DNA from: Candidatus Binatia bacterium
GTDB lineage: Bacteria; Desulfobacterota; Binatia; HRBIN30
Assembly: GCA_026004215.1 (NCBI GenBank)
Contig: BPIR01000002.1
Location: 1,115,031 to 1,179,030, forward strand
DNA: 64,000 nt
Reading direction: 5' to 3'
A program made the position numbers and the translations under genes. The first letter of the stretch is position 1. Each line of letters opens with the position of its first letter. A model generated the notes under the pieces. It saw only the letters and a list, made by a program, of their open reading frames with translations. It was not told the origin of the DNA and ran no database searches. Below are positions 29,982-31,956 of the stretch, piece by piece.

Positions 29982-30089
29982 TCGCATCCGGCACCACCTT
30001 GCCACTAATCCCCTGCGCTGGCACCTCGACCGCGAAAACCCTGCCCGAAGCGGCACGAATCCCGCTGGAGGAGGAATGGTTCGGGGTAA
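29982..30089 (+). pseudogene. 3'-terminal fragment of a Y1 transposase (last ~35 codons: ...ATNPLRWHLDRENPARSGTNP...WFG) abutting tRNA-His.
   Basis: It aligns to the C-terminal tails of copies A and B and has no N-terminal part. Confidence 0.55.
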
Positions 30090-30237
30090 CAAGGCGTTCT
30101 GTGTCGCGTTGACCCTCGCGCCGTGGACGACGTGGTGTTTGATGTCTTGGGTTTGACGGCAGGGGAGCGGGAGGCGGTGTACGAGGCGGTAATTGAGCTG
30201 TGCGTGCGCGGCTGGAGAAGGCAAGGAGTGTATAGCC

Positions 30238-30919
30238 ATGCCTTACGACCCGGAACGGCACCATCGCCGCAGCATCCGCCTGAAGGGGTACGATTACACC
30301 CAGCCTGGGGCGTATTTCGTCACCATTTGCACCCATGACCGGGCATGCCTGTTCGGCGAGGTGGTGGATGGACAGATGCGGTTGAACGAGGCAGGGTCAC
30401 GTCGCACAACGATGTTGGGCCGACATACCGAACCATTTCCCGCACGTTCAATTGGATGCATTCATCATCATGCCCAACCATGTGCATGGCATTTTGGTGA
30501 TTGCCCATTACGTCGGTAGGGGCGAAAAATTTTTCGCCCCTACCATCCCCACATTCGCCCCTACCATCCCCACATTCGCCCCTACCATTCCCATCTTCGC
30601 CCTCTACCATCACCGTTTTCGCCCCTTAGATCCACCGCCGCCGCACGACCATCACCCGCGGGGTACATCGAAAACCATCGGTTCGGTGATTCGCGGATTC
30701 AAAATCGGGGTGACCAAATGGTTCCGCCTGAATGCCGGCATTGAGTCCGTTCTGGCAACGCAATTATTACGAACACATCATCCGTGACGAACGATCCCTG
30801 AACCGCATCCGCGAATACATCGCCACCAACCCCCTGCGCTGGCACCTCGACCGCGAAAACCCTGCCCGAAGCGGCACGAATCCCCTGGAGGAGGAATGGT
30901 TCGGGTAACAAGGCGTTCT
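30238..30919 (+). pseudogene. Y1/HuH transposase (IS200/RAYT-like) copy A. It carries at least two frameshifts.
   Basis: The N-terminus is MPYDPERHHRRSIRLKGYDYTQPGAYFVTICT. The HuH region, a repeat block and the GTSKTIGSVIRGFKIGVTKWFRLNAG segment share one frame. The N-terminus and the NYYEHIIRDE...EEEWFG tail are in other frames. Confidence 0.65.
30516..30628 (+). repeat. Copy A: REP-like palindrome GTAGGGGCGAAAAATTTTTCGCCCCTAC plus about four tandem half-site units (CCAYYCCCAYMTTCGCCCCTAC), all embedded in transposase copy A.
   Basis: The repeats were read directly. None of the three forward frames has a stop codon. Confidence 0.6.
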
Positions 30920-31056
30920 GTGTCGCGTGACCCTCGCGCCGTGGACGACGTGGTGTTTGATGTCTTGGGTTTGACGGCCGGGGAGCGGAAGGCGGTGTAC
31001 GAGGCGGTAATTGAGCTCGTCCGCGCGCGGCTGGAGAAGGCAAGGAGTGTATAGCC

Positions 31057-31753
31057 ATGCCTTACGACCCGGAACGGCGCCATCGCCGTAGCATCCGCCT
31101 GAAGGGGTACGATTACACCCAGCCTGGGGCGTATTTCGTCACCCTTTGCACCTTAAACCGGCAGTGCCTGTTCGGCGAGGTGGTGGATGGACAGATGCGG
31201 TTGAACGAGGCAGGTCACGTCGCACAACGATGTTGGGCCGACATACCGAACCATTTCCCGCATGTTCAATTGGATGCATTCATCGTCATGCCCAACCATG
31301 TGCATGGCGTTTTGGTGATTGCCCATCACGTGGTAGGGGCGAAAAATTTTTCGCCCCTACCATTCCCATCTTCGCCCCTACCATTACACCACATTCGCCC
31401 CTACCATTCCCATTTTCGCCCCCTACCATTACCACCACATTCGCCCCCACCATCACCGTTTTCGCCCCTGGATCCACCGCCGCTGCACGCATCTCCCTTG
31501 CGGGGTACATCGAAAAACCATCGGTTCGGTGATTCGCGGATTTAAAATCGGGGGTGGACCAGAATGGTTCCGCCTGAATGCCGGCATTCAGTCCGTATGG
31601 CAACGCAACTACTACGAACACATCATCCGTGACGAACGATCCCTGAACCGCATCCGCGAATACATCGCCACCAATCCCCTGCGCTGGCACCTCGACCGCG
31701 AAAACCCTGAGCGGACCGGCACGAATCCCCTGGAGGAGGAATGGTTCGGGTAA
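31057..31753 (+). pseudogene. Y1/HuH transposase (IS200/RAYT-like) copy B. The N-terminus is intact through HuH, and the C-terminal catalytic-Tyr region is in a different frame.
   Basis: The N-terminal sequence MPYDPERRHRRSIRLKGYDYTQPGAYFVTLCT...VMPNHVHGVLVI runs into a repeat-encoded Pro-rich stretch and stops. The sequence IRGFKIGG...WQRNYYEHIIRDERSLNRIREYIATNPLRWHLDRENPERTGTNPLEEEWFG is in another frame. Confidence 0.65.
31333..31469 (+). repeat. Copy B: REP-like palindrome GTAGGGGCGAAAAATTTTTCGCCCCTAC plus five tandem half-site units, all embedded in transposase copy B.
   Basis: This has the same architecture and relative position as in copy A, but copy B has one more half-site unit than copy A. 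Confidence 0.6.
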
Positions 31754-31815
31754 ACGTAGCAGCAAATATTGCGCCCGTGCCGGTGTGGGTGCGAAGCGAT
31801 GCCGGGCGGGGTCGC

Positions 31816-31956
31816 CGAACAGCGTTGGTTCGACATCCCAATTCATTTCCCGCACGTGGTATTGGGCGCGTTGGTGGTGATGCCCAATCATGTCCATGGC
31901 ATTATCGTTCTTGTCGGGCCGGATGATGTAGGGGCGGGTTCGAAACCCGCCCCTAC
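31816..31956 (+). pseudogene. Third, more divergent Y1 transposase fragment. It contains only the HuH region (WFDIPIHFPHVVLGALVVMPNHVHGIIVLV) and ends in a REP-like palindrome at 31928..31956.
   Basis: The fragment is homologous to residues ~55-100 of copies A and B. Its palindrome, GTAGGGGCGGGTTCGAAACCCGCCCCTAC, sits at the same position after HuH. The fragment is open in-frame into the downstream moxR ORF. Confidence 0.5.

Follow-up and report, generated by a model that had tools for sequence, protein, structure and literature searches.

A Decayed Tandem Array of RAYT Pseudogenes and Restriction-Modification Gene Tails beside tRNA-His in a Candidatus Binatia Bacterium

Introduction

Tandem transposase copies placed directly behind a tRNA gene raise the question of whether an element entered the same site several times or a single segment was multiplied in place. 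This question is posed by a 64,000-nt stretch of DNA of Candidatus Binatia bacterium (assembly GCA_026004215.1, contig BPIR01000002.1, positions 1,115,031 to 1,179,030; hereafter the window), where a decayed block of 1,974 bp (29981–31954) lies between the genes for tRNA-His and MoxR. An initial annotation, made from the sequence alone, described the block as a head-to-tail series of pieces of one RAYT/IS200-like Y1 transposase. According to the present analysis, with a probability of about 0.68, the block is a decayed cluster of RAYT genes (tyrosine transposases associated with repetitive extragenic palindromes, REPs) of TnpA_REP subclass 2.4, or Group 4. In an earlier state, the cluster would have followed immediately after a restriction-modification (RM) gene of the MmeI/Eco57I type within a defence island, and its tandem structure would have arisen by segmental duplication.

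The Tandem Units and Their Shared Junction

Repeat finding yielded fourteen families of direct repeats (D1–D14) with start-to-start spacings of 818–846 bp, which confirms the head-to-tail repetition at a period of about 820 bp noticed initially. The first and the second period are 95.4% identical (774 matches, 37 substitutions). The indels between them are of 1–2 nt, except for a single indel of 24 nt corresponding to one additional internal repeat. The length and the identity of the array leave no room for a chance explanation. The left edge of the block is marked by tRNA-His, and homology to the transposase unit (family D5) begins at 29983, 4–5 bp past the end of this gene, where the start of the array had been placed; over the initial ~26 nt only 18 of 26 positions match. 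The block is slightly richer in AT than its surroundings, as had been judged by eye (GC content 0.587 vs 0.630 in the window).

Two near-full units (units 1 and 2, Table 1) carry the N-terminus MPYDPER..YDYTQPGAYFVT and the motif NHVHG, which includes the HVHG reported earlier. The initial description of four pieces of the same transposase holds for these units and for the preceding 3' fragment (frag0); the fourth piece (frag3) belongs to a different paralogue, with 61% DNA identity. The units had also been regarded as transposase only, while each of them contains a 148-bp spacer derived from another gene.

This spacer is the tail (~43 codons) of a type IIG RM gene of the MmeI/Eco57I type. No match for the spacer or its 52-aa open reading frame (ORF) was obtained in Pfam or NCBIfam, and its identity came from the contigs of the closest homologue of the transposase (P0001, 68% identity), which was found on five contigs from metagenomes or metagenome-assembled genomes (MAGs; L002–L006). 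These contigs encode an RM protein of 1211–1222 aa with the domains PF20473, PF07669 and PF22837 (MmeI_Mtase, Eco57I, M_Eco57I_C), terminating in ...VIELVRARLEKARSV before the stop codon. Overall, the spacers have 84–90% protein identity over 41–43 residues to three MmeI_Mtase/Eco57I proteins. In tblastn comparisons, the first tail copy matches the RM proteins of L002–L004 at 83–90% identity in a stretch of 30 aa and at 100% in one of 10 aa, and the second copy is 84–88% identical to the RM C-termini of L002 and L003. Only the tail of the RM gene is present in the array. It is followed, after a gap of 2 nt, by the RAYT start codon, and a Shine-Dalgarno-like AAGGAG precedes the ATG of both units. 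In L002 and L004 the RM gene is likewise located 2 nt upstream of P0001; the 2-nt gap is common to the window units and to L002, L004 and L133.

Both inter-unit junctions have the same sequence (98% identity in D7, 100% in D14). Since one junction containing the RM tail is shared, the units are copies of a single segment and not independent insertions. Two origins had been suggested initially, repeated integration and unequal crossing-over; the latter fits these data, whereas the former is at odds with shared RM-tail junctions of 98–100% identity.

Intact homologous arrays exist elsewhere. Three tandem RAYT paralogues, all intact, are found in L003 and L006, and two in L002, L004 and L005, the second being degraded in L002 and L004. 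In these arrays a ~50-nt RM tail precedes each RAYT gene that comes after another RAYT gene, and the linker of each RAYT contains a different REP type. Among 80 randomly sampled loci of the family, 74 have one copy and no RM tail, so the suspicion that tandem copies are atypical was justified. Tandem arrays are thus uncommon in the family but recurrent in this sub-clade. Low rates of recent RAYT duplication have been reported (Bertels et al. 2017, PMC5581495).

Several further features of the related islands were observed. An RM tail of ~130 nt occurs three to four times per locus in L005 (3046–6655) and L119 (1770–3286), where unrelated cassettes (Ymh-like, AAA_15/21 ATPase, a small toxin-antitoxin-like pair) as well as REP arrays are enclosed between its copies. 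Tails located before RAYT or REP end in GTGTAG, and those before other cassettes in GTGTGA. The islands of L002–L005, otherwise 92–99.9% identical, differ in a segment of ~300–650 bp (e.g., L002 5295–5945) that codes for the specificity region at the C-terminal end of the MmeI-type RM protein and is bracketed by the conserved upstream part and by the conserved tail with the RAYT array. This difference looks like specificity-domain swapping by recombination. Downstream of the RM–RAYT array and a DUF429 gene, L002 contains a CRISPR array (8355–11068, repeat GTTTCAATCCACGCGCCCGCGTGGGGCGCGAC, period ~66 bp) beside cas2, a neighbourhood that confirms the defence-island context.

The Gene Family

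The repaired ORF encodes 222 aa. The search proposed in the initial annotation, for Pfam Y1_Tnp (PF01797), gave 13.7 bits, or 21.8 bits without the linker, both below the cut-off of 23; NCBIfam REP_Tyr_transpos (NF047646) was also below its cut-off of 80 bits (57.1 bits, E=1.8e-15). The sub-threshold Pfam score is explained by the divergence of the clade and by the inserted linker. A precomputed PF01797 match is present in only 1 of the 120 best homologues, therefore the hidden Markov models (HMMs) under-cover this clade.

Membership in the HuH-Y1 superfamily nevertheless stands, on the E-value of REP_Tyr_transpos, on similarity to E. coli TnpA_REP (PDB 4ER8) in both sequence (E=2e-4) and fold, and on more than 8000 homologues across many phyla, often named "REP element-mobilizing transposase RayT". 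In the AlphaFold (AF2) model the core has a predicted local distance difference test score (pLDDT) above 85–90, and residues 92–142 are disordered. The top fold match in PDB is 4er8_A (E=8.6e-6, template modelling (TM) score 0.60, root-mean-square deviation 3.0 Å), followed by the TnpA of ISDra2 and IS608.

The catalytic Tyr is the Y in REYIATNP, which aligns to Y115 of 4ER8; the metal-ligand Asn four residues later aligns to N119. NYYEH, which had been taken for the catalytic Tyr motif, belongs instead to WQRNYYEHIIR, the counterpart of the GTAG-recognition segment of E. coli TnpA_REP, in which all five E. coli recognition residues (W, Q, E, H, R) are conserved.

The class 2 signature of TnpA_Y1 is Y---NP, whereas IS200 has Y---Q (Quentin et al. 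2018, PMC6006769). Because of the motif set NHVH / WQ / YIxxNP and the long, variable distance between HuH and Tyr, the gene is placed by its sequence in TnpA_REP subclass 2.4, the equivalent of RAYT Group 4 (Bertels et al. 2017, PMC5581495), and not in IS200. The key motifs of the subclass are NH[IFV]H, WQ and YIxNNP. The Y motif YIATNP has T where this consensus has N; close homologues have YIxxNP with N, T, D or E at this position. From the earlier label "RAYT/IS200-like Y1", the RAYT and superfamily parts can thus be retained, while the IS200 part is withdrawn (Y---NP, no IS200 ends, no tnpB). Members of subclass 2.4 are seen as domesticated genes that do not move by themselves (Quentin et al. 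2018, PMC6006769).

Decay of the RAYT Copies

All copies are broken, and each carries different frameshifts, in accordance with the initial view that none is functional. Two frame corrections are needed in unit 1, near 30394 and 30750, and this unit is annotated in the MAG as the fragments GIW45209 and GIW45211. Unit 2 (annotated as GIW45213 and GIW45214) requires a single correction, at the A5 run 31509–31513. Its KIGVTKW motif, the residues of which are nearly invariant (T159 of this region is invariant in the homologue alignment A2), is scrambled to KIGGGPEW; a cluster of three 1-nt insertions is located at 31550–31562. In frag0, which is 89.5% identical to the 3' end of unit 2, the Tyr motif reads RIRHHLATNP instead of RIREYIATNP, so that the catalytic Tyr is lost, and additional 1-nt insertions are present.

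Frag3 is a separate paralogue rather than another copy of the unit gene, because it has only 61% DNA identity to the units (D1) and bears an internal palindrome unlike that of units 1 and 2. Its amino acid identity to P0001 is 52%. Frag3 stops at its own REP and is joined in frame to the moxR ORF; this fusion is also present in an independent Logan contig (L001).

An internal duplication was observed elsewhere in the family. Contig L115 carries two RAYT loci (164–662 and 6113–6611), and in each of them the region RGTSK..YI..NP, which makes up the C-terminal half, is repeated in tandem at a distance of ~295 nt; the Tyr half is thus duplicated.

REP Palindromes within and outside the Genes

The window contains 6 GTAG...CTAC palindromes against 0 expected and 16 GTAGGGGC feet against 1.4 expected. 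The REPs of units 1 and 2 lie between NHVHG and RGTSK, and the two linkers are open in two different frames. For the REP of unit 1, DNA folding gave -15.9 kcal/mol (z=-4.85). The adjoining 21-bp repeat unit is the right half-arm of the REP, repeated; in unit 1, GCCCCTAC feet occur at 30536, 30557 and 30578. Three stem types were named: AAAAATTTTT, GGGTTCGAAACCC and GCGCACGGCCGTGCGC.

REPs located inside tnpA_REP between HuH and Y with the frame kept, double-foot REPs and short DNA repeats accounting for the variable linker have all been described for subclass 2.4 (PMC6006769), and the intragenic palindrome was therefore rejected as a new feature. Among the sampled metagenome genes of the family, 66 of 76 have a linker palindrome with arms of at least 8 bp, and the stems covary. 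In translated homologues the palindrome reads VGAKNFSPLP, VGARHAVPL or VGAGxKPAPT, and some homologues show half-REP expansions of the left or the right arm. At other loci of the family, flanking REPs are often of the same stem type as the intragenic REP. Canonical long or double-foot REPs (GT[AG]G ... C[TC]AC) are associated with subclass 2.4, beside the gene and scattered over the genome as well. The palindrome search found no REP flanking units 1 or 2, and no extragenic REP of stem type AAAAATTTTT or GGGTTCGAAACCC is present in the window. The three extragenic REPs (GTAGGGGC...GCCCCTAC) differ in stem type from those within the RAYT copies. Two extragenic REPs and a degenerate third are located between an amidase gene and a gene for an OYE-like (old yellow enzyme) oxidoreductase.

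Six indels distinguish the linkers of units 1 and 2; they total -24 nt, and both frames remain open across the REP zone. Since the sum is frame-neutral and both linkers stay open, the sequences suggest that the copies were under selection for a while after the duplication.

A general start of RAYT genes in a GTAG/CCCTAC mini-REP was considered and rejected, as GTAG occurs at most 14 nt upstream in 11 of 76 genes, all of them from the RM-tail subset. In L131 (~782), L137 (~1704) and L144 (~4419) a REP extends over the gene start, so that the conserved Pro-Tyr codons of the N-terminus (M)PYDP are part of CCCCTAC, the 3' foot of this REP. The core of the frag3 REP, GGGTTCGAAACCC, resembles the T-arm of tRNA (GGTTCGAATCC) at a distance of 2 kb from three tRNA genes, which is probably a coincidence.

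The Locus in Related Genomes

Orthologous loci were obtained through exact-cluster look-ups; a scan of genome contigs for MoxR gave only distant relatives (at most 80% identity) without tRNA beside moxR and was abandoned. In eight contigs with ~79% DNA identity (L088–L095), the order rph-rdgB-tRNA(Pro,Arg,His)-moxR-vwa is kept, and tRNA-His is separated from moxR by 184 bp without RAYT. The same interval in bacterium HR30 (L087) holds an unrelated, REP-rich insert of 4.9 kb, and in L176 a C-terminal RAYT fragment is located 3.4 kb upstream of moxR. The comparison with relatives called for in the initial annotation is thus in favour of a hotspot adjacent to the tRNA gene. The HR30 insert (L087 1440–6440) contains HicB-like and DUF2834 genes and at least seven REPs with the core GGGCGCA[CT]GGC..TGCGCCC, the first of them 20 bp past tRNA-His.

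Homology of the flanks to L087 and L088 stops at 29978–29980 and restarts at 31955 (L087) and 31976 (L088); the ancestral intergenic DNA resumes 0–3 nt from the 3' foot of the frag3 REP. The block has therefore taken the place of the ancestral spacer in this lineage only, at a hypervariable position. No integrase-like ORF was found in 29981–31954, and the tRNA-His 3' end (25-mer, up to 3 mismatches) occurs only once in the window. Genes of the L002-type island for the helicase, the RM protein and DUF429 were found neither in L176 and L087 nor in the whole window beyond the two RM tails.

The annotated MoxR (GIW45215) has 360 aa, whereas the majority of proteins in its 90% cluster, among them those of every orthologous locus that was examined, have 293 aa and a start equivalent to ATG 32000. 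The difference is due to frag3, the codons of which are in frame upstream of moxR and are included in the annotated protein. Of the ancestral DNA upstream of moxR, no more than ~43 bp remained after the insertion, so the native promoter of the gene may have been displaced.

Table 1. Features of the array, the neighbouring genes and the REPs of the window
Feature	Position	Strand	Evidence and remarks
tRNA-His (GTG)	29905-29978	+	ARAGORN; Rfam 63.9 bits; last gene of Pro-Arg-His tRNA cluster
frag0: RAYT 3' end, last ~35 codons	29983-30090	+	families D5, D9; alignment; tblastn
Spacer between frag0 and unit 1	30091-30237
RM-tail copy 1, last ~41 codons and stop, frameshifted	30110-30235	+	tblastn
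Unit 1: RAYT pseudogene, assigned to TnpA_REP subclass 2.4	30238-30908	+	ORFs; tblastn in three frames
Unit 1 intragenic double-foot REP GTAGGGGCGAAAAATTTTTCGCCCCTAC	30516-30543	.	in HuH-to-Tyr linker; reads GRGEKFFAPT
Unit 1 half-arm repeats, 4.4 copies of 21-bp TTCGCCCCTACCATCCCCACA	30533-30626	+	Tandem Repeats Finder (TRF); families D2/D8
Spacer between units 1 and 2	30909-31056		148 bp
RM-tail copy 2, last 43 codons and stop (DPRAVDDVVFDVLGLTAGERKAVYEAVIELVRARLEKARSV, stop), in frame, intact	30923-31054	+	tblastn; annotated GIW45212
Unit 2: RAYT pseudogene	31057-31753	+	ORFs; tblastn; indel list
Unit 2 intragenic REP, same sequence as unit 1	31333-31360	.	other frame: VGAKNFSPLP
Unit 2 half-arm repeats, 5.4 copies	31350-31469		TRF
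frag3: central piece of different RAYT paralogue (..WFDIPIHFPHVVLGALVVMPNHVHGIIVLVGPDDVGAGSKPAPT)	31770-31956	+	D1; tblastn; ORF 31769-32881
frag3 REP GTAGGGGCGGGTTCGAAACCCGCCCCTAC	31928-31956	.	palindrome search
moxR-like AAA+ ATPase	32000-32881	+	Pfam; true start ATG 32000, 293 aa as in orthologues
Extragenic double-foot REP GTAGGGGCGCACGGCCGTGCGCCCCTAC	23005-23032	.	palindrome search
Extragenic REP	46440-46474	.	palindrome search
Extragenic REP	46566-46593	.	palindrome search

Sequence Quality of the Array

The assembly was made with metaFlye from PacBio HiFi reads with an N50 of 10.5 kb, hence single reads should span the 2-kb array. An independent Logan contig (run DRR290133) matches the window without a gap along 7,901 bp, at an identity of 99.81%; it begins within the 3' end of unit 2 and confirms the junction of unit 2, frag3 and moxR. 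Because of this gapless match and of the orthologue-like lengths of the flanking genes, a general indel problem in the assembly is unlikely.

Origin of the Block

Segmental duplication of a RAYT cluster behind an RM gene is the preferred reading. It starts from what was observed: the family assignment, the identity of the RM tails, their shared junction, the absence of the block from relatives and the intact homologous arrays elsewhere. For the order of events and the recombination mechanism, we infer the following. The ancestral order would have been the RM gene, a 2-nt gap, RAYT-A and RAYT-B, as in L002–L006. A segment reaching from ~43 codons before the RM stop to at most 17 nt past the RAYT-A stop could have been duplicated in tandem by illegitimate recombination or slippage and then amplified to at least three copies by unequal homologous crossing-over, which would account for [RM tail + RAYT] units that follow each other head to tail and have the same sequence at their junctions. 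The copies would have diverged by ~5%, with changes of the REP linkers by repeat slippage that stayed in frame, until three uncompensated frameshifts disabled both copies. Through one deletion the RM gene would have been lost together with the greater part of the first copy, of which frag0 remained beside tRNA-His. Another could have joined the stop of unit 2 to the middle of RAYT-B; RAYT-B itself would have been truncated at the 3' foot of the REP within it and brought next to the DNA upstream of moxR. The block is now likely functionless.

Several points weigh against this history. The full RM gene is absent from the window. The proposed ancestral arrangement would be borrowed from contigs of unassigned taxonomy with a RAYT of only 68% identity. 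The RM tails in the arrays of L002–L006 are of ~50 nt and not ~130 nt, therefore those duplications were independent events, and independent duplications could point to a mechanism more specific than random unequal crossing-over. The position of one boundary exactly at a REP foot hints that REP/RAYT chemistry made at least that junction. Finally, in exact look-ups in other assemblies, the array ORFs form singleton clusters confined to this MAG; a single assembly is thus the source for both the number of copies and the three frameshifts, and two of the three frameshifts are at short homopolymers.

The main rival is a rearrangement catalyzed by RAYT and REP: HUH cleavage and rejoining of single-stranded DNA at GTAG-footed hairpins might have duplicated the units, expanded the half-REPs and truncated frag3 at its REP foot, or at least made some of the junctions. 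This reading seems improbable. The conserved GTAG-recognition residues would be compatible with it, as would the end of frag3, 0–3 nt from the REP 3' foot where ancestral DNA restarts; that boundary is, however, a single case, and neither the inter-unit junction (30909–30925) nor the left boundary (29981–30005) is located at a REP or GTAG hairpin. Half-arm repeats flank the REP in both units in different numbers and have left- and right-arm parallels in homologues, but replication slippage at a hairpin explains them equally. The GTGTAG end of RM tails before RAYT or REP, against GTGTGA before other cassettes, would also suit such chemistry, while GTAG before the start codon is restricted to just 11 of 76 genes, all of the RM-tail subset. 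It is rather doubtful, too, that [RM tail + RAYT] forms part of a modular recombination system of defence islands, in which the conserved ~50–130-nt 3' tail of MmeI-family RM genes would serve as a reusable joint for the insertion, duplication and exchange of RAYT genes, REPs and defence cassettes of other kinds. Such recombination could be homologous, or RAYT-assisted at the GTAG overlapping the RM stop codon. The occurrence of the tail up to four times around different cassettes (L005, L119), the swapped RM specificity region in islands otherwise 92–99% identical (L002–L005) and the differing tail lengths of independent duplications fit this view.

An assembly or consensus artefact, by which the unit copy number or some or all frameshifts would reflect strain mixing or mis-polishing in the repeat, is about as doubtful as the modular system. 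The sequence is a MAG consensus from a metagenome, its array ORFs occur in no other assembly, the Logan contig of a near-identical strain breaks at the repeat (window position 31724), and several indels lie in short homopolymers, with the three 1-nt insertions clustered at 31550–31562. Against this, HiFi reads of the given N50 span the array, 37 substitutions and a 24-nt indel between the units make collapse or expansion unlikely, the Logan match is gapless over 7.9 kb with orthologue-like lengths of flanking genes, the right-hand junction is independently confirmed, and five independent contigs have the same modular architecture. That an IS200-like element entered the tRNA-His hotspot several times, by site-specific integration or by transposition, is very improbable. 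The block does start 2–5 bp past the tRNA 3' end, and the site is differently occupied among relatives; yet the identical junctions hold the tail of a foreign gene, and the shared RM-tail junction already contradicts this explanation. Moreover, the motif is Y---NP of RAYT class 2 and not the Y---Q of IS200, class 2 genes are not known as mobile, no subterminal IS hairpins at the unit ends, tnpB, integrase or duplicated tRNA end were found, and tblastn detected no further unit copy within the window. Little credence can likewise be given to an array that still functions, for instance because programmed frameshifting occurs in the A5 run of unit 2 or because the RAYT is phase-variable. A single +1 frameshift in a homopolymer is all that separates unit 2 from a full ORF, AAGGAG precedes each ATG, and the linker indels are frame-neutral in sum; but unit 2 is without nearly invariant KIGVTKW residues (T159 among them), unit 1 needs two repairs, and the translated homologues show no conserved frameshift signal, although no search aimed at one was made.

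Significance and Comparison with Known Systems

For annotation, the result means that six "hypothetical proteins" (GIW45209–45214) are pseudogene fragments and that GIW45215 carries a spurious N-terminal extension of 67 residues of RAYT debris. The locus would also be a rare case of recent (95% identity) duplication of a Group 4 RAYT, by segmental duplication and not by self-mobilisation, followed by decay; this agrees with the view of these RAYTs as domesticated and not self-copying. RAYT arrays behind MmeI-type RM genes with a repeated RM tail could be a lead on defence islands, of which the window holds only a wreck. The gene family, the intragenic REPs and the linker repeats are already known, and clusters with truncated TnpA_REP fragments are on record from a different subclass. 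The [RM tail + RAYT] tandem module and the RM tail as a recurring joint between cassettes appear to be undescribed; a literature search found no direct precedent linking RAYT and RM systems.

The closest known system is subclass 2.4 / Group 4 (PMC6006769, PMC5581495), with which the window gene shares NHVH, WQ, Y---NP and the variable HuH–Tyr linker, as well as in-frame intragenic double-foot REPs (5' GTAG ... CTAC 3'), linker repeats and a scattered taxonomic distribution. According to the published averages for the subclass, a genome has 1.5 copies, which are ~40% identical to each other, and rates of recent duplication are low, whereas here two tandem copies of 95% identity and fragments are present, all of them pseudogenes. 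Further differences are that the window units are not flanked by REPs, that YIATNP has T for N and that the HMM scores lie below the cut-offs.

E. coli TnpA_REP/REPtron (PDB 4ER8, subclass 2.2) has the same HUH-Y1 fold, with aligned Tyr, Asn, W, Q, E, H and R and cognate hairpins with a GTAG foot, as here. Identity to it is ~15%, and the window gene has in addition a disordered, REP-encoded linker of ~50 residues (pLDDT <50). The E. coli REPs flank the gene and are bulged, with a single foot; those of the window units are intragenic, perfect double-foot palindromes. TnpA of IS200/IS605 (subclass 1.1) belongs to the same superfamily, shares the fold and acts on DNA hairpins. It differs from the window gene in Y---Q instead of Y---NP. 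IS200/IS605 elements have subterminal hairpins at both ends, often tnpB, and several near-identical dispersed copies, whereas the boundaries of the window units are free of such hairpins, an ORF resembling tnpB is absent, and within the window the copies occur in the array only.

Variable DNA at a tRNA 3' end with occupancy differing among relatives is also characteristic of tRNA-adjacent integrase islands, while the window block is without an integrase or a tRNA 3' repeat and contains only pseudogene debris. A parallel is provided by the prochlorosin (procA) clusters of Prochlorococcus (Laurenceau et al., bioRxiv 10.1101/2020.03.09.984088), which contain full-length and truncated, often C-terminal, copies of TnpA_REP. 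There, as here, a domesticated TnpA_REP is locally tied to repeated pieces of another gene family. The Prochlorococcus genes, however, belong to subclass 2.1 (Group 1), face procA in the opposite orientation and have no intragenic REP, whereas in the window the RAYT copies are associated with repeats of an RM gene's 3' tail, which run in the same direction as RAYT.

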